Positions 1,640 through 34,570 of a stretch of 64,000 bases of DNA are shown here, in pieces (position 1 is the stretch's first letter; every line of letters starts with the position of its first letter). Source of the stretch: Candidatus Methylomirabilota bacterium (GTDB lineage: Bacteria; Methylomirabilota; Methylomirabilia; Rokubacteriales; CSP1-6); NCBI GenBank assembly GCA_035605575.1, contig DASTCJ010000012.1:1075-65074 (forward strand), written 5' to 3'. The position numbers and the translations under genes were made by a program. The notes below the pieces were generated by a model. The model was given only the letters and a program-made list of their open reading frames with translations. It was not told the origin of the DNA and ran no database searches.

Positions 1640-2481
1640 TGCGCACACGCGAGGTGGCGGTGGGCTCGATCCGGATCGGCGCGGGCCGTCCGCTCGTGCT
1701 GATCGGCGGCCCGTGTGCCATCGAAGACGAGACCCATGCGCTGATGACCGCCGAGCGCCTGACGAAGATCGCCGCCGACAAACGGGTGCCGTTCATCTAC
1801 AAGTCGTCCTACGACAAGGCGAATCGCTCGTCGGTGAACAGTTATCGGGGCCCCGGCCTGGTGGAGGGGCTGCGGATCTTGAAGAAGGTACGCGACAGCG
1901 TCGGGGTGCCCGTGCTGTCGGACATCCATCAGGTGTCGGAGATCGATCCCGCCGCCGAGGTCCTCGACGTGCTGCAGATTCCCGCGTTTCTCTGCCGCCA
2001 GACTGACCTGCTGCTCGCCGCCGCGGCGACCGGAAAGCCGGTCAACGTCAAGAAAGGTCAGTTCGTGGCGCCGCGGGACATGAAGAACGTCGTGGACAAG
2101 CTCCTGTCCAAAGGCAACGAAGCCATCTTGCTGACCGAGCGCGGCACATCCTTCGGATATCACAACCTCGTCGTCGACATGCGCGGGCTCGCGGACATGC
2201 GCGAGCTCGGCTATCCCGTCGTGTTCGACGCGACGCACTCGGTCCAGCTGCCGGGGGGCGCCGGCGACCGGTCGGGCGGCGAACGCAAATACGTTCCCGC
2301 GCTCGCGCGCGCCGCCGTCGCCGTCGGCATCGACGCGCTCTTCATGGAGATGCACGAGGACCCCGATCGCACGCTGCGCGACGGGCGGCCGCTGTCCGAC
2401 GGACCGAACATGCTGCGCATCGCCGATCTGCCGCCGCTGCTCGACGAGCTGCTGGCCATCCACGGAGCGCTCCGCTCGTGA
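1639..2481 (+). CDS. kdsA: 2-dehydro-3-deoxyphosphooctonate aldolase (KDO-8-phosphate synthase)
   Basis: 280-aa in-frame segment starting [29 protein letters not shown] with typical KdsA motifs ([23 protein letters not shown]); ATGA overlap with the pyrG stop; the upstream part of six-frame ORF 859..2481 is an artefactual extension. Confidence 0.9.
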
Positions 2482-3458
2482 GCGGCCCGGGCCGCGTCGA
2501 CGTGCGAGCGATCGCCGCCCGCGTGCTGCGCGTGGAGGCCGACGCGATTCTGGGCCTCGTGCCCAAGCTCGATGCCCGCTTCGAACGAGCCGTGGAGCTG
2601 CTGCACGCCTGCGCCGGTCGCGTCATCGTCACCGGCATGGGAAAGTCCGGTATCATCGGACGAAAGATCGCGGCGACGCTGGCGTCGACCGGCACCCCGT
2701 CCTACTTCCTGCATCCAGCCGAGGGCGTGCACGGCGACCTCGGCATGGTCGCGCGCGGCGACATCGTCCTCGCGCTGTCGAACTCGGGCGAAACGGACGA
2801 GGTGCTGGCCATCTTGCCGCCGCTCAAACGACTGGGCGTGCCGATCGTGCTCCTCACGGGCAATCCCGGGTCGACGCTCGCGCGTCAATGCGACGTCGTG
2901 CTCGACGTGAGTGTGAGCGAGGAGGCGTGTCCGATGAACCTCGCGCCGACCTCGTCGACGACGGCCGCGCTCGCCGCCGGGGATGCGCTCGCCATGGCGT
3001 TGCTCGAGCTTCGCGGTCTGCGCCCAGAGGACTACGCGGCACTGCACCCGCGCGGCACGCTCGGCTGGCGGGCGCTCTTCCGCGTGGGCGATCTGATGCA
3101 CACCGGCGACGCGGTCCCGCGGGTCCGAGCCGACGCGACGCTCGAGGACACCATCCTCGAGATGACCAAGAAGCGCTTCGGCATGACGACCGTGATCGAC
3201 GGCGCCGGCCGCCTCAGGGGTGTCGTCACCGATGGTGATCTCCGGCGGCTGCACTTGCGTACCCAGTCGATCGCCGGCGTGCGGGCAGCCGACGTCGCCT
3301 CCGACACGCCGAAGACGATCGGCGCCGACGAGCTCGCCGCCAAAGCGCTCGAAGTGATGGAAGCATGGGCGATCACGAGCCTCATCGTCCCGGACGCCGA
3401 TGGACGGCCGATCGGCGTGATTCACATGCACGACATCCTCCGAGCGAAGATCGTCTAG
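2478..3458 (+). CDS. kdsD: arabinose-5-phosphate isomerase (SIS + tandem CBS domains, KpsF/GutQ family)
   Basis: 326 aa; SIS motif [24 protein letters not shown] and C-terminal CBS pair; 4-nt overlap with kdsA. Confidence 0.9.
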
Positions 3459-3525
3459 CGTCGTCGAGCCTTCGTATTTCGTCTCGCTGGAGAGTGTTTG
3501 TGATAGGCTGGTATCGAAATTGCAC

Positions 3526-4077
3526 ATGCCCAACCTCGCACGCGGCATTCTCGTAATCGTTGTCGCGTTCGTCCTGCTCCTGACGGGGACGCTGATCTTC
3601 AGGAGCCGGTCGGCCACGATCGAGCCTATCGGTCCGTCACCGTCCAGCGCGGATCTCCGGATCAAGGAAGTGGACCTCGAAGAGGAGACGAAGGGCGTCC
3701 GGTGGCGCCTCCGGGCCGAGCAGGCGCTCATGTTCGAGCAACAGGGACGGACGTCGCTGCGCCGGCTGGTCGTGCGCGTATTTCAGAAGGACGGTTCGTG
3801 GACCGCCGTGGGGGACGAGGGCGACATCGATCAGAACACCAAGAATGTCGAGATCCGCGGCAACGTGGTGATCACCTCCGACGACGGTCTTCGGCTGGAC
3901 ACGAGCGTAATCCGCTGGGACGCTGAAGGAGGGCGGTTGTGGACGGATGCGCCGGTCACCTTCCAGCGCGACGGCTCGGTCGTCCGCGGCACCGGCATGG
4001 AGATGAAGACGGCAGACGAGGCAACCACCGTGACCGGGCGCGTCCGCGCCGTGTTCGCGCAGCGGTCCGCTCGGTGA
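3526..4077 (+). CDS. lptC: LPS export system protein LptC
   Basis: single N-terminal TM helix followed by a periplasmic beta-jellyroll-like region; conserved position between kdsD and lptA; ATG at 3526 (the ORF track begins at TTG 3520). Confidence 0.7.
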   Translation: MPNLARGILVIVVAFVLLLTGTLIFRSRSATIEPIGPSPSSADLRIKEVDLEEETKGVRWRLRAEQALMFEQQGRTSLRRLVVRVFQKDGSWTAVGDEGDIDQNTKNVEIRGNVVITSDDGLRLDTSVIRWDAEGGRLWTDAPVTFQRDGSVVRGTGMEMKTADEATTVTGRVRAVFAQRSAR

Positions 4078-4088
4078 GCGTCCGCGTC

Positions 4089-4697
4089 ATGGCCGTTTTG
4101 AGCCTGGCCGCGCTCGCCGTCGCCCCGGCGCTCGCCGACGCGGGGTCGTCTGCGACCCCGGCTGGGCCGGTGGCGCCGAGGACTTCCGGTGAGGAGCGCA
4201 CGCAAAAGGACCGTGCCTCGCGGAGCAACGAAAAGGACGACCGCACGCAGCCTGTGACCGTCGACGCCGACAAGATGGAGCGGTTTGGCAAGGAAGGCCT
4301 GGTCGTCTTCACCGGCAACGTCGTCGCACGGCAGAACAACTCCGTGCAATACGCCGAGCGCATGGAAGTCTACCTGGACGAGGCCGGCGACAAGATCGTG
4401 CGAACCGTCTCCACCGGCTCGGTGCGAATCATTACCCGTGACTGCCGGACGGGGACCGCACAGCGCGCGGAATACCACGACCTCGAGCAACGCGTGGTGC
4501 TGATGGGCAACGCACGCGTCTGGCAGGAAGACAACGTCGTCAGCGGCGATACGATCACGATCTTCCTCTCGCAGGATCGCTCGGTGGTGCAGGGCGGCAA
4601 GGACGAGCGCGTCAAGGCCGTCTTCTATCCCAAGGACGAGAAGTCCAACACCGCGGCCCGGCCGAGCCAGTCGGCGCCGGGGACGTGCAGCAACTGA
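4089..4697 (+). CDS. lptA: LPS transport periplasmic protein LptA (OstA-like)
   Basis: signal peptide MAVLSLAALAVAPALADA followed by an OstA-like fold (FTGNVVARQNNSV...GNARVWQEDNVVSGDTITIF); sits immediately upstream of lptB. Confidence 0.8.
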   Translation: MAVLSLAALAVAPALADAGSSATPAGPVAPRTSGEERTQKDRASRSNEKDDRTQPVTVDADKMERFGKEGLVVFTGNVVARQNNSVQYAERMEVYLDEAGDKIVRTVSTGSVRIITRDCRTGTAQRAEYHDLEQRVVLMGNARVWQEDNVVSGDTITIFLSQDRSVVQGGKDERVKAVFYPKDEKSNTAARPSQSAPGTCSN

Positions 4698-4700
4698 GCG

Positions 4701-5423
4701 ATGGAAGGCCTCGTGGCGCAGGGGCTCCAGAAATGGTTCAAGACCCGCAAGGTCGTCGACAACGTGTCGCTCGATATCCAGCGCGGTGAGGTGGTCGGCT
4801 TGCTGGGTCCCAACGGCGCGGGCAAGACCACATCCTTTTATATGATGGTTGGCCTGCTGCCCACCGAAGGCGGCCGGATTTTCCTGGAAGGCCAGGAGAT
4901 CACGGCCCTACCGATGTACCAGCGCTGCCGCATGGGTGTCGGCTACCTGCCTCAGGAGTCCTCGGTGTTCCGGAAGCTCACCGTCGAGGAAAATCTCTTA
5001 GCGATCCTGGAGACGCTCGATCTGCCGAGCGAGGAGCGTCGTCAGCGGGCGCGTGAGCTGCTGGCCGAGCTGGACCTGACAGGCCTGGCGCCGTATCCGG
5101 CCTACACGCTGTCGGGCGGCGAGCGTCGCCGGCTCGAGATCACGCGGGCGCTCGTCACCTCGCCGCAGTACCTGCTGCTGGACGAGCCGTTCACCGGCAT
5201 CGATCCGATCGCCATCGGCGACATCCAGGAGATCGTCGGCCGGCTGAAGGAGCGCGGCATCGGCATTCTGATCACCGACCACAACGTGCGCGAAACGCTC
5301 GCGATCACCGATCGCGCCTACATCCTCTACGATGGCAGGATCCTCGTGTCCGGCACGGCCAGCGAGATCGCCAATAATCCGATAGCCCGAGAGATCTACC
5401 TCGGCGAGAAGTTCGCGCTGTAG
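4701..5423 (+). CDS. lptB: LPS export ABC transporter ATP-binding protein LptB
   Basis: Walker A GPNGAGKTT, ABC signature LSGGERRRLEI and Walker B LLLDEPF; 240 aa. Confidence 0.95.
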   Translation: MEGLVAQGLQKWFKTRKVVDNVSLDIQRGEVVGLLGPNGAGKTTSFYMMVGLLPTEGGRIFLEGQEITALPMYQRCRMGVGYLPQESSVFRKLTVEENLLAILETLDLPSEERRQRARELLAELDLTGLAPYPAYTLSGGERRRLEITRALVTSPQYLLLDEPFTGIDPIAIGDIQEIVGRLKERGIGILITDHNVRETLAITDRAYILYDGRILVSGTASEIANNPIAREIYLGEKFAL

Positions 5424-5446
5424 GTCCGAGGGCCCGAGAACCGCCT

Positions 5447-6907
5447 ATGGCAATGGAAGCCCGACTCTCCCTCCGACAGAGCCAGCGGGTTGTCATGACG
5501 CCGCTGCTGCAGCAGGCCATTCAGCTGTTGCAGCTCAGCACGCTCGAGCTGCAGGAAGTGGTGCAGAAGGAGCTGCTCGAGAACCCGCTGCTCGAAGAAG
5601 TTCAGCCCGAGACGACCGATGCGCCCGACGGGCAAGCCGCGCCGGACGTTCCGACAGCGCCTCCCGCGGAGCCGCTCAGCAGCGAGGCGGCGCCGACACC
5701 GACCACCGAGCGCCAGACCGACGACCTGCCGTTCGATCTCACGGCGGTGATGTTCGACGATCACGAGGAGCGCTCGCTCGTGGCGCAAGAGGACCGCGAG
5801 GACCTGCCATTCGAGAACATGGTCCGCTCGGTCAACTCGCTGACCGATCATCTCGACGAGCAGCTGCGCTATGCCACCGACGATCCGCTCGTGCGGCGCA
5901 TCGGTGAGGAGATCATCGGCAATCTCGACGAGGACGGCTACTTGCGCGCCGAGGTCGACGAGATCGCGCAGCGATGCCAGACGACGGCCGAGGAGGTCCA
6001 GAAGGTCCTCACGATGGTGCAGGCCTTCGACCCCCCCGGCGTGGCCGCACGTAACATCCAGGAGTGCCTGCTGATCCAGCTCAAGACCGATCCCAATCCC
6101 GATCCCGTGTCGGTGGAGATCGTCGAGGAGCACTTCGAGGACCTGACACGTCGCCGCTATCCCGACATCGCCCGCGCGCTCAAGCTGCCCCTCGATCGCA
6201 TCATGGAATCGGTCGAGGAGATCATGGGCCTCGAGCCCAAGCCGGGCCGGCGCTTCGGCGGCAACGACTCGCGCTACATCGTGCCCGACGTTGTCGTGCA
6301 CAAGATGGGCACCGAGTATGTCGTCGTGCTCAACGAGGACGGCATCCCGCGGCTCCGCGTGAACTCCCTGTACCGGTCCCTGCTGCGCTCGTCGTCGGAT
6401 GGTGAGGCGCGGCAGTACGTCGACCAGAAGCTGCGCTCGGCGCTCTGGCTCATCAAATCCGTCGACCAGCGGCAGCGCACGCTCCGCAAGGTGACGCAGT
6501 CGATCGTCAAGTTCCAGCGCGAGTTCCTCGACAAGGGCCTGCCATACCTCAGACCGCTGTCGCTGCGCGACGTCGGCGAGGACATCGGCATGCACGAGTC
6601 GACCATCAGCCGCGTGACGACGAACAAGTACGTCGAGACGCCGCAGGGCCTCTTCGAGCTCAAGTACTTCTTCCACAGCGGCATCGCCTCCGGCGACGGC
6701 GAGATGGTGTCGTCGGTGAGCGTCAAGAAGATGATCCAGGATCTGCTGGCCAACGAAGACCCTTCCAAGCCGCTGTCCGACCAAGAGGTGGCTCTCATCC
6801 TCAAGGGGCGTGGGCTCACCATCGCCCGGCGCACGGTGGCGAAGTATCGCGAGGAGCTCGGCATCCTGCCCTCGCACCAGAGGAGACTCGCGCCACGGCG
6901 CCGATGA
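5447..6907 (+). CDS. rpoN: RNA polymerase sigma-54 factor
   Basis: N-terminal Gln/Leu-rich region I (LLQQAIQLLQLSTLELQ) and a C-terminal RpoN box region (ARRTVAKYRE); 486 aa. Confidence 0.95.
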   Translation: MAMEARLSLRQSQRVVMTPLLQQAIQLLQLSTLELQEVVQKELLENPLLEEVQPETTDAPDGQAAPDVPTAPPAEPLSSEAAPTPTTERQTDDLPFDLTAVMFDDHEERSLVAQEDREDLPFENMVRSVNSLTDHLDEQLRYATDDPLVRRIGEEIIGNLDEDGYLRAEVDEIAQRCQTTAEEVQKVLTMVQAFDPPGVAARNIQECLLIQLKTDPNPDPVSVEIVEEHFEDLTRRRYPDIARALKLPLDRIMESVEEIMGLEPKPGRRFGGNDSRYIVPDVVVHKMGTEYVVVLNEDGIPRLRVNSLYRSLLRSSSDGEARQYVDQKLRSALWLIKSVDQRQRTLRKVTQSIVKFQREFLDKGLPYLRPLSLRDVGEDIGMHESTISRVTTNKYVETPQGLFELKYFFHSGIASGDGEMVSSVSVKKMIQDLLANEDPSKPLSDQEVALILKGRGLTIARRTVAKYREELGILPSHQRRLAPRRR

Positions 6908-27088: not shown

Positions 27089-30000
27089 ATGCAACACGCC
27101 GAGTTCGTCCATCTGCACGTTCACTCCGAGTACAGCCTGCTCGACGGCGCCGCGCAGCTCGAGAAGCTCGTCAAGAAGGCGAAGGATCTGAAGTTCGCGG
27201 CCATCGCCCTCACCGACCATGGCAACCTCTTCGGCGGCATCGAATTCTATCTCGCCGCCCAGAAGGCCGGTATCAAGCCCATCCTCGGCTGCGAACTCTA
27301 CGTGGCGCCCGGCAAGCGGACGGATCGCGCATCACAGGATGGTGGCTACGAGGGCGCGAATCACCTGACGGTGCTGGTGCGCGATGCCACGGGCTACCGC
27401 AATCTGATCAAGCTCGTCTCCAAGGCGTATCTGGAAGGCTTTTACTACAAGCCGCGCGTGGATCGCGAGCTGCTCGCTCAGCATGCCGGTGGACTCCTCG
27501 TGCTGTCCGGCTGTCTGAACTCGGAGGTGTCGCGCGCCCTGACGACGGGCGACTTCGACAAGGCGCGACAGACGGCGGGCTGGTATCAGGAGGTCTTCGG
27601 CCGCGACCACTATTTCATGGAAGTCCAGGCCCACGGCATGGACGAGCAGGTCAAGGTCACCGCGGAGACGGTGAAGATCGCGAGGGCGATCGGGGCGCCC
27701 ATCTGCGGCACGAACGATTCGCACTATCTCGAGGCCGGTCACGCGCGGGCCCACGAGGCCCTGCTGTGCATCCAGACGGGATCGACGCTGGCGGATCCCA
27801 CCCGCTGGAAGTTCTCGACCCAGGAGTTCTACGTGAAATCGGCGGAGGAGATGGCGCAGGTCTTCGCCGATCTGCCGGAGGCGTGCCGCAATACGCTGGC
27901 CGTGGCCGAGCGGTGCAACCTCACGCTCGACTTCGGACGCTTCCACCTGCCGAAGTACGTGGTGCCCGAGACGCACACGCTCGAGACGTACCTCAGCGAG
28001 CTGGCGCGCGACGGGCTGAAGCGACGCTATGGTCCGAGCCCGGGTGACGCCATCGAGAACCGGCTCGCCCACGAGCTCTCGGTCATCGAGAAGATGGGCT
28101 TCGCCGGCTACTTTCTCGTCGTGTGGGACTTCATCCACTACGCGCGGCAGCACGGCATCGCCGTCGGCCCCGGCCGTGGCTCGTCCGCCGGGTCTCTGGT
28201 CGCGTACTGTCTCGGCATCACGAACGTGGATCCGATTCGCTACGGGCTGCTGTTCGAGCGATTCTTGAACCCCGAGCGCATCTCGATGCCGGACATGGAT
28301 ATCGACTTCGCCGACGATCGCCGCGACGAGGTCATCCGCTACGTCGCTGACAAGTACGGCCGGGATCGGGTGGCGCACATCATCACGTTCGGCACCCTCG
28401 GCGCCAAGGCCGCCATCCGTGACGTCGGCCGCGTGCTCGGGATGAGCTATGCCGACGTCGACCGCATCGCCAAGCTCGTCCCGAACTTCCCGCTGAACAT
28501 CACGCTGGACGACGCCTATCAGAAGTCGCCCCCGCTGGCCGAGATGGTGAAGGGCCAGGACGGCGTGGCCGAGCTGTGGGACATCGCGCGCGCGCTCGAA
28601 GGCTGCACGCGCCACGCGTCGGTGCACGCCTCGGCCGTCGTCATCGCCGACGACCCGCTCGACGACTACATCCCCCTCTACAAGGATCCGAAGCGGCCCG
28701 AGCTCATCACCGGCTACGCCATGGGCCCCATCGAGAAGCTCGGCCTGCTGAAGATGGACTTCCTCGGCCTGCGCACGCTGACGGTGCTCGCGAACACGGC
28801 AACGCTCATCAAGGAGTCGCGCGGGATCGACATCGACTTCGACGCGTTGCCCCTCGACGATCCGAAGGCGTACGCGCTGCTCACGGAGGCCAGAACCTTC
28901 GGCGTCTTCCAGCTGGAGTCCTCGGGCATGCGCGAGGCGCTGCGCGGCCTCAAGCCCGAGCGTCTCGAGGACGTCATCGCCATGGTGTCGCTCTACCGGC
29001 CCGGCCCCATGGAGCTCATTCCGGACTTCATCAACAGAAAGCACGGCCGGGCCAAGGTCACCTACGAGCATTCCGCGATGGAGAGGTTCACGCGGGAGAC
29101 GTACGGGATCATGGTCTATCAAGAGCAGATCATGCAGATCGCCTCCGAGATGGCCGGGTTCACCATGGGCGAGGCCGACACGCTCCGCCGCGCCATGGGC
29201 AAGAAGGACCGCGATCTGATGGCCAAGCAGCGCGAGAAGTTCCTCGCCGGGTGCGCCGAGCGTGGCACGGCGAACGCCAAGGCCGAGCGGGTCTGGGAGC
29301 TGATGGAGAAGTTCGCCGGGTACGGTTTCAACAAGTGCCTGGCCGCCGACGCGTGGATCGAGATGGTCGACGGCTCGCGCAAGCCCATCACGGCCATCCG
29401 CGACGGCGATCTCGTGCTGACGAAGGACGGGCCGCACAGGGCGTGCCGCGTGCGGCCGAGCGGCGTACGGCAGGTGGGCCGGCTGACGCTCGAAAACGGC
29501 TGTGCGCTGCGCTGCACGCCCGACCACCCGATCTTCACCGAGCGCGGCTGGATCAATGCCGAGGACCTCAAGCCGGGCGACGCGGTGGCCGTCCTCGACG
29601 TGGCGACGGCCGCCTTCCGGCGCGTGGAAGCACGCCGCCGCGGTGAGCCGGCGGAGGTCAGCCAGACACCGATGGCGTGGATGACGCCCGTCTCGTTCGT
29701 GCTCGAGGGCGAGGAGCCCACCTACGATTTCGAGGTGCCCGGCGCCCACAGCTTTATCGCCAATGGCGTGGCCGTCCACAACTCGCACGCAGCGGCGTAC
29801 GCGCTGGTCGCATACCAGACCGCCTACTTCAAGGCGAACTACCCCGTCGAGTTCATGGCCGCGCTGCTCACGTCCGAAATGGGCGACACCGACAAGATCG
29901 TGAAGTACATCGACGAGTGTCGGGCGATGGGGCTGACCGTGTCGCCCCCCGACGTCAACGTGTCGGCCGTGCAGTTCAGCGTCGCCGGTGACACGATCCG

Positions 30001-31009
30001 TTTCGGGCTGGCTGCCATCAAGAACGTCGGTGAGGCGGCGATGGAGTCCATCCTGAAGACGCGGGCTGAGGAGGAAGCGTTCAAGACGCTCGACGACTTC
30101 TGCGTCCGCGTCGATCTCCGCCTCGTCAACCGGCGCGTCATCGAGAGCTTGATCAAGGCGGGCGCGTTCGACTCGCTCGGTCTCACGCGCGCACACCTTC
30201 TGGCGCAGACCGACGCCGCGCTCGAGGCGGGCCAGCGCGTGCAGCGCGATCGTGCGGAGGGACAGGCGTCCTTCTTCGACGATCTCCTGCCGAAGGCCCC
30301 CGTGCAGACGCGCGCGGAGACGATGACCCCCGTGCTCGAGGAGTGGCCCGAAGATCAGCGGCTGGCGTACGAGAAGGAAGTCCTCGGCTTCTACGTCTCC
30401 GGCCATCCGCTCGCGCAGTATGCCGGCCTCGTGGAGTCGCTCGGCGTGACGACCGCCGCCGATCTCGCCACCAGGGGCCACGGCGCGAAGGTCACGCTCG
30501 TCGGGCACGTGGCCGCGCTAAAGGAAACCGCGACCAAGAGCGGCAACCGGATGGCGTTCCTGACGCTGGAGGACATGACCGGCACGGTCGAGGTCACCGT
30601 GTTTCCCGAGCCGTTCAAGGCGGCGGCGCCGTTCCTGCGCGGGCGCGAGCCGATCATCGTACGCGGCCGCGTGGACGACGGCGACAAGGGCCGCGTCGTC
30701 CTCGCCGAGGACGCGCGACTGCTCGAGGACTCGCTCGGGACCACCACCGCTCGCGCGAAGACGGGCGGCGAGCCGAGCGCGTGTCGGATCCGCGTGCGCG
30801 GCAACGGCGAGACGAGCTCTCAGCTGGCGGCGCTGCGAAAGGTTTGCGAGGAGCATCCAGGCGGCGTGCCGGTGTTCGTGCACGTCCTGCTGCCGGGGCT
30901 CGAGGTGGTCGTGCGCTCGCGCGGTATCTCCGTGGACGGCGGCGCCGCACTCAACGAGAAAGTGAACGCGCTCCTCGGTCCAGCCGCTTTCACCATCGAC
31001 TATGCCTGA
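27089..31009 (+). CDS. dnaE: DNA polymerase III subunit alpha, containing a 149-aa mini-intein
   Basis: PHP domain (HLHVHSEYSLLDG) and polymerase core; 1306 aa, about 150 aa longer than usual because the conserved FAGYGFNK|SHAAAYALVAY motif is split by an insertion. Confidence 0.95.
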   Translation: MQHAEFVHLHVHSEYSLLDGAAQLEKLVKKAKDLKFAAIALTDHGNLFGGIEFYLAAQKAGIKPILGCELYVAPGKRTDRASQDGGYEGANHLTVLVRDATGYRNLIKLVSKAYLEGFYYKPRVDRELLAQHAGGLLVLSGCLNSEVSRALTTGDFDKARQTAGWYQEVFGRDHYFMEVQAHGMDEQVKVTAETVKIARAIGAPICGTNDSHYLEAGHARAHEALLCIQTGSTLADPTRWKFSTQEFYVKSAEEMAQVFADLPEACRNTLAVAERCNLTLDFGRFHLPKYVVPETHTLETYLSELARDGLKRRYGPSPGDAIENRLAHELSVIEKMGFAGYFLVVWDFIHYARQHGIAVGPGRGSSAGSLVAYCLGITNVDPIRYGLLFERFLNPERISMPDMDIDFADDRRDEVIRYVADKYGRDRVAHIITFGTLGAKAAIRDVGRVLGMSYADVDRIAKLVPNFPLNITLDDAYQKSPPLAEMVKGQDGVAELWDIARALEGCTRHASVHASAVVIADDPLDDYIPLYKDPKRPELITGYAMGPIEKLGLLKMDFLGLRTLTVLANTATLIKESRGIDIDFDALPLDDPKAYALLTEARTFGVFQLESSGMREALRGLKPERLEDVIAMVSLYRPGPMELIPDFINRKHGRAKVTYEHSAMERFTRETYGIMVYQEQIMQIASEMAGFTMGEADTLRRAMGKKDRDLMAKQREKFLAGCAERGTANAKAERVWELMEKFAGYGFNKCLAADAWIEMVDGSRKPITAIRDGDLVLTKDGPHRACRVRPSGVRQVGRLTLENGCALRCTPDHPIFTERGWINAEDLKPGDAVAVLDVATAAFRRVEARRRGEPAEVSQTPMAWMTPVSFVLEGEEPTYDFEVPGAHSFIANGVAVHNSHAAAYALVAYQTAYFKANYPVEFMAALLTSEMGDTDKIVKYIDECRAMGLTVSPPDVNVSAVQFSVAGDTIRFGLAAIKNVGEAAMESILKTRAEEEAFKTLDDFCVRVDLRLVNRRVIESLIKAGAFDSLGLTRAHLLAQTDAALEAGQRVQRDRAEGQASFFDDLLPKAPVQTRAETMTPVLEEWPEDQRLAYEKEVLGFYVSGHPLAQYAGLVESLGVTTAADLATRGHGAKVTLVGHVAALKETATKSGNRMAFLTLEDMTGTVEVTVFPEPFKAAAPFLRGREPIIVRGRVDDGDKGRVVLAEDARLLEDSLGTTTARAKTGGEPSACRIRVRGNGETSSQLAALRKVCEEHPGGVPVFVHVLLPGLEVVVRSRGISVDGGAALNEKVNALLGPAAFTIDYA
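29336..29782 (+). other. mini-intein inserted in DnaE (Cys1 ... His-Asn, +1 Ser)
   Basis: in-frame 149-aa insertion beginning CLAADAWIEMVDG (block A), containing TPDHP (block B TxxH) and ending VAVHN directly before SHAAAY; too short for a homing endonuclease domain. Confidence 0.8.
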
Positions 31010-31970: not shown

Positions 31971-32960
31971 TCAGCGCCGGAGGAGCCCGAGCGCAGCGTC
32001 CTCGTCGGTGACGAGGACGTTCATGAAGCGACCCGCCAGCGCACCGCGCAGCGCTTCGACCTTGCTCTTGCCGCCCGCGACGGCGATGACCGTCCGATCG
32101 TCGCGCCGCGAGAGCGCCTGCAGCTGGTCGCCCGCGACCGACAGCAGGCGACGCGAGAGCGCGGCGAGCTCGGGTCGCTCGACGATGCGCCCTTCGGCGT
32201 CGAAGGGCTGATAGTTGATCTCGCCCACCACGCCGAGCTGCCGCAGCCGCTTCACGCTGACGCCGTAGGACTCGGCCAGCGAGCAGAAGCCGGGCGTCTG
32301 CTCGGCGATCATCCCGACGCCCACGATGGCGATGTCGACATCCTGCGCCGCCTCGTAGATGGAGCGGATCTCCGGATCCCGCAGAAGCCGTCGGCGCTCG
32401 CGCTCGATCTGGCCGAGCGAGAGCAGGTGCTGGACGGGAAGGGCGTAGGCGCGCACGTGCGGCCGGTATTTCGCGGCCATCATCCCGACCAGCGTGTTCG
32501 AGAAGATGTCGACGAGCTTCAGCGTGCTCTCACCGGAGAGCGGATAGAGCGTGAGGTCGCGCAGCCGCCGCTCGCGAAGCGAGCGAATCGTGTGATAGAG
32601 CGTGAGGCCGCACGACAGCCCGATCTTCATGCCGTTCTCCGCCACCTTCTCGAAGTATGCGGCGGCGGCGGCGCCGAGCTCGGCGCGGAGATCGCCACGG
32701 CCGCCCGAGGCAACGACGACCGCCTCCCGCAATTCGAACGTCTGCACGAGCGCCGTCTCGAGATCCTCGGTGCGCGGGAGATCCAGCTCGACGCGCACGA
32801 GCCCCTCGTCCATCGCGCGCTTGAGCAGGCGTGACACGGTGGCCGCCGACACGCCGAGCGCTGTGGCGATGTCCTTCTGGCTGCGGCCCTGCCGGTAGTA
32901 GAGCTCCAGGCACTGGACCATCTGCCGGACTTCACGCGAGGGTTGCGAAATTAATTTCAT
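31971..32960 (-). CDS. SorC/DeoR-family sugar-phosphate-binding transcriptional regulator (CggR-like)
   Basis: N-terminal HTH (IATALGVSAATVSRLLKRA) plus a C-terminal SorC sugar-binding domain; start taken at MKLISQ (32960), giving 330 aa. Confidence 0.75.
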   Translation of the reverse strand: MKLISQPSREVRQMVQCLELYYRQGRSQKDIATALGVSAATVSRLLKRAMDEGLVRVELDLPRTEDLETALVQTFELREAVVVASGGRGDLRAELGAAAAAYFEKVAENGMKIGLSCGLTLYHTIRSLRERRLRDLTLYPLSGESTLKLVDIFSNTLVGMMAAKYRPHVRAYALPVQHLLSLGQIERERRRLLRDPEIRSIYEAAQDVDIAIVGVGMIAEQTPGFCSLAESYGVSVKRLRQLGVVGEINYQPFDAEGRIVERPELAALSRRLLSVAGDQLQALSRRDDRTVIAVAGGKSKVEALRGALAGRFMNVLVTDEDAALGLLRR

Positions 32961-33049
32961 GGCTCTCAAGTTCTTGCTTGACCGCCCAAGTCTACGCCGA
33001 TATCCTCCGAGCGTCAGGAAATTCCCATCACCGTCAATGGAGGGCAGCA

Positions 33050-34570
33050 ATGGACGCACGCCGCTACGGCCCGTCCGATGGCCGACCCGTCCCCTTCGAG
33101 GCATATCACCAGTCCCGTAACGAGCTGGAGGGCCTGCCGCTGACGGTGGCGGACAAGATTCCCGTCACCAACACGCCGAACATCTTCTCGTACAAGGCGT
33201 ACGTGTTCGCGAAGGACCCCGCCCTCGTGCGCCGCTTCATCAAGGCCACCAAGGCGGACGTGGGGGGCGTCGGCGGTCACGTGGTCGCCGCCGACGAGGT
33301 GAAGTCGGTCATCGCGAAGTTCGTCCTCGACAACAACGCCTATCGCGGCGAGCCGATCTTCACCTCGCTCATGATCACGCACACCGGTGACGACTGCGCG
33401 GTGACCGGCATCATGGCCGAGTCGGTCGACATGTCGGTCGTCGACGAGCTCATGTGGGATGCGCTGCAGGAAGGCGCGGCCAAGGCCGCCGAGCTCGGTC
33501 TCTACGGGCCCGGCCAGGATCTCGTGGCCGATGCGTTCACCGGTAACCTGCGCGGCGCGGGCCCCGCAACCGTGGCGCTGCCATTCCCGGTGCGGAAGGA
33601 CAATCCATCGCAGACGGTCCTCGTGTCCTTCGCCGACAAGACGGAGCCGATGGCGTTCAATCACTTCGCGACCGGCGCCTACATGCTGCCACGCTTCAAC
33701 AGCGGGCTCATCATCGCGTCTTCGCGGATGAAGCGCGGCTACGTGTTCGAGATCGTCGATCTCGACACGAAGGCACAGGCCATCGAGGCCGGCGCCCACC
33801 CCCGCGATGCCCAAGCCCTCGACGGCAAGATGGAGGAGCTCGCCAAGGGGCTTCAGGAGAAGGTGATCACGCTGCGCGCGCCCGAGGATCTCTACGACAT
33901 CGAGGGTCTCACGCGTTCGTCGCGCTTCGTCGTCGCGCGCATCTGGACCCGCAACGACGCGGGCGAAAAGGACCAGCTCGGCTACATCTGCTCGGCCGAG
34001 CGCCTGCACAACATCAAGACGAAGAAAGGCTTCACCTACGGGGGCAAGGACGATCCTGTGCTTCTGGCCTTCGCCCAGGGCGACTGGCCGGCCCCGGGCG
34101 AGATCACCTCGCCGTGGGCGACGGCACCGATGGTGGCCGGCGACTGCCGTGGTAGCCACAACCTGCACATCCTGCCGATGCCCATCAACTCGCAGACCTC
34201 GTACTGGTCCGGCCCGATCATCTCGGCCATCACGCTCTCGTGCAACATCCACACGGGCCGCATCGGCGCGATCTCGGATCAGTTCGCGCTCGGCACGCCG
34301 TGGGACGAGGTGCGCCGTACCGCCTCACAGCTGGCCATCCAGTTCCGTCACGCGCACGGCGTCAAGCAGCCCGCGACGCTGCACGAAGACGAGCTCGAGT
34401 ACCAGGAAGGCTGGAAGGAACGCCGCGCCCGCCTCGAGCGCCAGTTCGAGGTGAAACCTGCGCTGACATTCACCCCAAACGGCACCAGCACCCACGGCAA
34501 CGGCCACCCGACCGCCACCGGCGCAAGCCGCACCGCCCTCACCACCGCTCGTCCGGAGGAGATCGACTAG
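33050..34570 (+). CDS. fbp: bifunctional fructose-1,6-bisphosphate aldolase/phosphatase (class V FBPase, archaeal type) with N- and C-terminal extensions
   Basis: internal blocks match the archaeal FBPA/P: KADVGG..GH, LGLYGPGQDLVADAFTGNLRGAGP, ADKTEP, GGKDDPV, GDCRGSHNLHILPMP; GGAGGG RBS 6 nt upstream of the ATG; 507 aa. Confidence 0.75.
   Translation: MDARRYGPSDGRPVPFEAYHQSRNELEGLPLTVADKIPVTNTPNIFSYKAYVFAKDPALVRRFIKATKADVGGVGGHVVAADEVKSVIAKFVLDNNAYRGEPIFTSLMITHTGDDCAVTGIMAESVDMSVVDELMWDALQEGAAKAAELGLYGPGQDLVADAFTGNLRGAGPATVALPFPVRKDNPSQTVLVSFADKTEPMAFNHFATGAYMLPRFNSGLIIASSRMKRGYVFEIVDLDTKAQAIEAGAHPRDAQALDGKMEELAKGLQEKVITLRAPEDLYDIEGLTRSSRFVVARIWTRNDAGEKDQLGYICSAERLHNIKTKKGFTYGGKDDPVLLAFAQGDWPAPGEITSPWATAPMVAGDCRGSHNLHILPMPINSQTSYWSGPIISAITLSCNIHTGRIGAISDQFALGTPWDEVRRTASQLAIQFRHAHGVKQPATLHEDELEYQEGWKERRARLERQFEVKPALTFTPNGTSTHGNGHPTATGASRTALTTARPEEID

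Follow-up and report, generated by a model that had tools for sequence, protein, structure and literature searches.

The dnaE gene and its in-frame insertion

In the 64-kb stretch of DNA analysed here (the window), a conserved motif of the replicative DNA polymerase gene dnaE is interrupted by additional coding sequence. The locus raises the questions of what this insertion is, where it came from and how the polymerase can function with it. The ORF at 27089-31009 (+) encodes a precursor of 1306 aa, the insertion included. Its Pfam domains (PHP, DNA_pol3_alpha, finger, HHH_6 and OB) identify the product as a DnaE-type Pol III alpha subunit, and the NCBIfam DnaE equivalog NF004226 matched it with 1452 bits in two stretches, with a break at residue 753. 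Translation of 29276-29842 gave EKFAGYGFNK|CLAADAWIEMVDG...RCTPDHP...TYDFEVPGAHSFIANGVAVHN|SHAAAYALVAYQTAY (vertical bars mark the junctions), with zero stop codons. The insertion occupies exactly 29336-29782, that is, 447 nt or 149 codons, in frame between FAGYGFNK and SHAAAY, and its removal leaves a DnaE of 1157 aa. An earlier note on this DNA had proposed these coordinates and a restored length of about 1157 aa, and both were reproduced by the translation. The note also expected a flush NK|SH junction against intein-free orthologues. Such a junction, reading ...TTCAACAAG|TCGCAC..., was seen in the DNA of eight orthologous loci.

Exactly the same protein was found on a 28.9-kb contig of a farmland-soil metagenome, with the gene order guaB-guaA-dnaE-accA. 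Just downstream of accA lies a gene for a SorC/Sugar-bind-type regulator, with a long divergent ORF adjoining it (31971-33104, −; 32831-34570, +). No tRNA genes, Rfam matches or notable tandem repeats were found in the 64-kb window. The features of dnaE, all on the forward strand, are as follows.

27089..31009, +: dnaE, DNA polymerase III alpha subunit precursor, 1306 aa (ORF, Pfam domains, NF004226)
27089..29335, +: N-extein, residues 1-749, ending in FAGYGFNK; Lys749 corresponds to E. coli Lys758 (alignment to the E. coli and Taq Pol III alpha structures)
29336..29782, +: class-1 mini-intein, 149 aa, CLAADAW...GVAVHN (Pfam and NCBIfam, PDB sequence matches, AF2 model, Foldseek)
29336..29338, +: Cys1 codon, block A nucleophile (invariant column in the alignment of 21 mini-inteins)
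29516..29527, +: block B, Thr61-Pro-Asp-His64 (TxxH; conservation, and alignment to TPDH of the Mtu RecA intein)
29600..29695, +: linker, residues 89-120, at the canonical endonuclease insertion point (alignment with 421-aa relatives, model, relaxed selection)
29717..29767, +: block F region PTYDFEVPGAHSFIANG with Asp131 (aligned to RTYDLEVEELHTLVAEG of the Mtu RecA intein; low dN/dS of the C-terminal part)
29768..29782, +: block G, VAVHN, with penultimate His148 and terminal Asn149 (both invariant; TIGR01443 match)
29783..29785, +: Ser+1, first C-extein residue and second nucleophile, equivalent to E. coli Ser759 and followed by the equivalent of the steric-gate His760 (translation, structure alignment, PMC8485763)
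29783..31009, +: C-extein, 408 aa, plus the stop codon (ORF, Pfam domains)

Identification of the insertion as a mini-intein

Searched alone, the 149 aa matched four profiles above their cut-offs: Pfam Intein_splicing (PF14890; 48.6 bits, cut-off 35.8, E = 1e-12), Hint_2 (PF13403; 35.5 bits, cut-off 28.4), Vint (PF14623; 30.0 bits, cut-off 27) and NCBIfam intein_Cterm (TIGR01443; 31.2 bits, cut-off 15.6). A sequence search of the PDB returned the Mtu RecA mini-intein (2.4e-12), the Npu DnaB intein (1.2e-9) and the Ssp DnaB intein (1.3e-8). In the alignment to the Mtu RecA intein, TPDH fell on block B, and TYDFEV...VHN fell on blocks F and G. Judged from these matches, the resemblance of the insertion to inteins lies far beyond chance.

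Conservation was examined in an alignment of the window sequence and 20 other full-coverage mini-inteins, gathered by searching 1.84 billion representatives exhaustively. The columns of Cys1, His64, His148 and Asn149 were invariant in these 21 mini-inteins, and Thr61 was present in at least 90% of them. The intein hallmarks read from the letters in the earlier note (an initial Cys, a TPDHP block B, a GVAVHN end and a Ser at +1) are in place. Position 138 in block F is His in the window and in one relative (L021), but sister inteins have Ala, Arg or Lys there; the family thus does not conserve every textbook residue. The Rokubacteria DnaE inteins can probably do without a His at this position. 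Cys60 (29513-29515), directly before Thr61 in RCTPDH, is nearly invariant in Rokubacteria DnaE inteins and is replaced by Ala or Val in most others.

An AlphaFold (AF2) model built on the alignment of the 21 full-coverage mini-inteins (A2) reached a pLDDT of 96.1 and a pTM of 0.89. A model from a shallow alignment of metagenomic fragments (A1; pLDDT 56, C-terminal third unmodelled) was discarded in favour of it. The retained model has a helix at residues 89-101, where the pLDDT is lower. In a Foldseek search of the PDB with this model, the best 21 matches were all inteins (TMq 0.73-0.81, best E = 3.4e-11), and comparison with the Npu DnaB, Mtu RecA and Ssp DnaB inteins gave TM values of 0.77-0.86 with an rmsd of 1.4-3.2 Å. 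The mini-intein is thus predicted to adopt the HINT fold.

A Pfam scan found no LAGLIDADG, HNH or Hom_end domain in the 149 aa. The element is therefore a mini-intein, lacking a homing-endonuclease domain and falling within about 130-200 aa, in agreement with the earlier view that it is too short to hold a LAGLIDADG or HNH endonuclease. We assigned it to class 1 (canonical four-step splicing) because it has Cys1, Ser+1 and, in block F, an Asp. Three other assignments were considered and rejected. A class 3 intein does not require a Cys1/Ser1 nucleophile and has a WCT triplet and a block F Cys; here Cys1 is present, and Asp131 aligned with the block F Asp of the Mtu RecA intein. Bacterial intein-like (BIL) domains reside in variable proteins and mostly lack a +1 nucleophile or a flush, conserved junction, which does not fit the conserved replicase motif of the host protein, Ser+1 and the flush junction; BIL structures also ranked well below inteins in the Foldseek search. 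A split intein does not fit a single contiguous ORF. When the family HMM was run over the six-frame translation of the window, it matched the dnaE site only, with the next best hit at E = 0.17, and no further inteins were found in the window.

Insertion site in Pol III alpha

When the spliced sequence was aligned to Pol III alpha structures, the junction fell between E. coli Lys758 and Ser759, which is Lys815|Ser816 in Taq. E. coli Ser759 and His760 lie in the active-site helix of the fingers domain, with His760 proposed as the steric gate (PMC8485763). The junction is located in this helix one residue before the steric-gate His, so without splicing the precursor should have no activity.

In the Npu split DnaE intein, the native exteins read AEY|CFNK (PMC3759424). 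Therefore, the window intein is located elsewhere, four residues downstream at FNK|SH; whether it occupies the cyanobacterial split site had been left open in the earlier note. An InBase-derived supplementary table lists inteins of other organisms at FNK|SH, namely the DnaE-2 intein of Thermus thermophilus HB8 and HB27 (Tth; 423 aa, S1662, FNKSHAA) and the DnaE intein of Gemmata obscuriglobus (Gob; 446 aa, S1208, FNKSHTA), and gives GVL|CYQE and LRR|[CS]MGK as other DnaE intein sites (PMC3359363). With the Lys of GFNK before it and the Ser of SHxAY after it, the insertion is at this already catalogued Tth DnaE-2/Gob DnaE site. A full-text literature search for inteins in Rokubacteria and for names of DnaE sites returned nothing useful.

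Two contiguous, intein-less dnaE genes, one in an unclassified MAG (L059, about 3001-6468) and the other in a groundwater MAG labelled 'Cyanobacteria bacterium' (L077, about 2418-4946), encode FSEYCFNRAH, with Cys at +1 of the cyanobacterial split site. This Cys may have been left behind by a lost intein, or the site may be pre-adapted.

Relatives at the same site and the homing cycle

A scan of one genome per species yielded relatives of the locus; the host belongs among Candidatus Rokubacteria/Methylomirabilota MAGs. The states found at FNK|SH in Rokubacteria are listed below (coordinates are those of the locus concerned).

Intein-free: L010, L011, L014, L016, L019, L020, L022, L062, L068, L079 (junction shown in DNA for eight of the ten, all except L020 and L079)
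421-aa intein with two LAGLIDADG motifs: L004-L008, L017 (LAGLIDADG_3, PF14528, 58 bits, scanned on L004)
284-aa intermediate: L013, 5248-6099 (first LAGLIDADG motif retained, second lost; without a LAGLIDADG Pfam match)
203-aa intermediate: L015, 5248-5856 (without a LAGLIDADG Pfam match)
149-154-aa mini-intein: the window, L001, L002, L003, L021

In the intein-free orthologues, GFNK|SHAAAY stands at these same codons; such orthologues occur at 80-82% extein identity. The 421-aa inteins (those listed and protein P0019) share site and lineage with the window intein and are 55-61% identical to it over the splicing domain, with the blocks RCTPDHP and YDFEVP...FIANGIAVHN as in the window. They carry LAGLIDADG_3 and are presumably mobile, whereas the window intein is without about 272 of their residues. 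Blocks B and F flank the gap, which coincides with the canonical point of endonuclease insertion.

The mini-inteins form a monophyletic clade in neighbour-joining trees of both the extein and the intein. Members of this clade are 84.5-86% identical to the window in the extein and 66-76% in the intein. In other parts of the host tree, intein-free alleles are intermixed with endonuclease-bearing ones (e.g. L011 with L005 and L016 with L008), which is the pattern expected of a homing cycle.

Inteins at FNK|SH were also found in other phyla, namely in Gemmata algarum (194 aa, L023), a Gemmatales MAG (145 aa), a Bacteroidia MAG (182 aa) and an Omnitrophota MAG (458 aa). The inteins of the Gemmata group, Bacteroidia and Omnitrophota are 27-30% identical to that of the window, no closer than inteins of other host proteins.

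A further Rokubacteria MAG carries a same-site intein on a 573-kb contig (L009, 5248 onward), but its reading frame breaks within what remains of the endonuclease, leaving the rest of dnaE out of frame; this may reflect an assembly indel or a pseudogene. Four DnaE-like proteins of 1860-3151 aa from the search of representatives (P0039, P0044, P0093 and P0097) are interrupted by an intein at FN[KR]|C, the same position, and have 3-5 matched stretches; presumably, each carries several inteins.

Selection, composition and age

Within the mini-intein clade, the whole intein showed dN/dS of 0.22-0.47, with 0.19-0.39 in the N-terminal splicing part and 0.11-0.32 in the C-terminal splicing part. Linker residues 97-120 gave 0.3-1.2, i.e. 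relaxed selection, and the extein gave 0.09-0.21. All these values are approximate because the sequences are short and dS is 0.5-0.9. The ratios indicate that the splicing parts of the intein are under purifying selection. The dS to the window was 0.52-0.87 for the intein, close to that of the extein (0.65-0.68), which fits co-divergence with the host gene.

The earlier note had regarded such elements as markers of horizontal transfer and proposed a check for a deviation in codon usage or GC3. No deviation appeared: GC3 was 0.919 in the intein and 0.909 ± 0.031 in extein windows, and GC was likewise in the range of the host gene. Because GC3 lies within the extein distribution, composition gives no hint of a recent transfer. 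The match of GC3 and dS to the host gene indicates that the element is old, ameliorated, immobile and vertically inherited.

Proposed mechanism, origin and alternative explanations

Taken as a whole, the data make it very probable that the insertion is a class-1 HINT mini-intein that removes itself from its precursor, that it descended from a 421-aa LAGLIDADG intein, and that it is now immobile, vertically transmitted and kept splicing-competent. Splicing and its chemistry are proposed by analogy with established intein chemistry. The 447 nt would be translated as part of the 1306-aa DnaE precursor, and the intein would excise itself after translation. Cys1 would undergo an N-to-S acyl shift at Lys749-Cys1, aided by Thr61 and His64 of block B, and Ser+1 would then attack the thioester (trans-esterification) to give a branched ester. 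Cyclisation of Asn149, assisted by His148, would release the intein, and an O-to-N shift would join ...GFNK to SHAAAY..., giving the active 1157-aa polymerase. The ancestor was very probably a LAGLIDADG-bearing intein of 421 aa homing into the Rokubacteria dnaE site. Its endonuclease of about 272 aa would have been lost once in the mini lineage, leaving linker 89-120 as the remnant. Loss of the endonuclease would render the intein immobile and vertically inherited. It would be kept splicing-competent because it interrupts the fingers domain of an essential enzyme one residue ahead of the steric-gate His; we assume that the dnaE copy of the window is essential.

Loss of the endonuclease and the variability of position 138 among sister inteins would also be compatible with a decayed HINT insertion that no longer splices and is either tolerated by the polymerase or located in a non-functional dnaE copy. 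However, the core catalytic residues are all intact, the splicing parts (dN/dS 0.11-0.39) are under purifying selection and the extein is strongly constrained. Furthermore, a polymerase that retained 149 aa between the residues corresponding to E. coli K758 and S759/H760 should not be functional, and dnaE stands in the housekeeping context guaB-guaA-dnaE-accA. A dead insertion is therefore very improbable. According to the earlier note, close orthologues carrying the same 149 aa as a conserved non-splicing insertion would speak against an intein. Four close relatives do carry a homologous mini-intein, but its catalytic residues are intact, and equally close relatives are empty or hold the 421-aa form. 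The source being a metagenome assembly, a chimeric insertion produced by assembly or binning and absent from the real organism was also considered. Its probability is practically negligible, since the insertion is in frame and flush at the codon level, its composition matches the host gene, and homologous mini-inteins occupy the identical site in four independent MAGs of other studies (L001, L002, L003 and L021).

An active intein could also have been retained as a conditional switch, for example through redox- or stress-sensitive splicing, that controls the supply of replicase, and not merely be a trapped selfish element. Its vertical persistence across the whole clade after endonuclease loss, its placement in the active site and the near invariance of Cys60 beside block B in the Rokubacteria family, not shared by other inteins, are points in favour of this explanation. 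However, lethality of non-splicing fully explains both the persistence and the purifying selection, equally close relatives live without the intein, and none of the observations points specifically to conditional splicing, so we consider such a role very improbable. A post-translational switch on the replicative polymerase, possibly operating via Cys60 and Cys1 and acting through the position before the steric-gate histidine, is likewise a long shot.

Comparison with known inteins and significance

The closest catalogued counterparts of this mini-intein by site are the Tth HB8/HB27 DnaE-2 and Gob DnaE inteins, which resemble it in host protein, insertion point, Ser+1 and class-1 termini. Compared by site and listed length, they have room for an endonuclease (423 and 446 aa), in contrast to the 149 aa of the window intein. 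The cyanobacterial split DnaE inteins (Ssp and Npu; also Ter DnaE-3) share with it the host protein, the conserved motif and the HINT fold, and the Ssp and Npu DnaE structures matched the model with TMq of 0.73-0.80. They are, however, split over two genes and use Cys+1 at AEY|CFNK, whereas the window intein is contiguous and uses Ser+1. By sequence and fold, the closest are the engineered or natural mini-inteins Mtu RecA delta-I, Ssp DnaB and Npu DnaB, which have the same residues in blocks A, B, F and G but reside in other host proteins at other sites and are 21-30% identical to the window intein.

The element is an ordinary additional intein of a well-known family, at a catalogued insertion site and with a domain found by routine Pfam annotation. 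It leaves general knowledge of inteins unchanged, and its value is modest. For annotation, the mature DnaE should be given as 1157 aa. As a natural, compact class-1 mini-intein (149 aa, Cys1, Ser+1) of a mesophilic lineage living in soil, it is a candidate for protein-engineering screens. For the family, the dnaE genes of Rokubacteria offer a natural series at one site (empty, 421, 284, 203 and 149-154 aa) for the homing cycle and the decay of the endonuclease.
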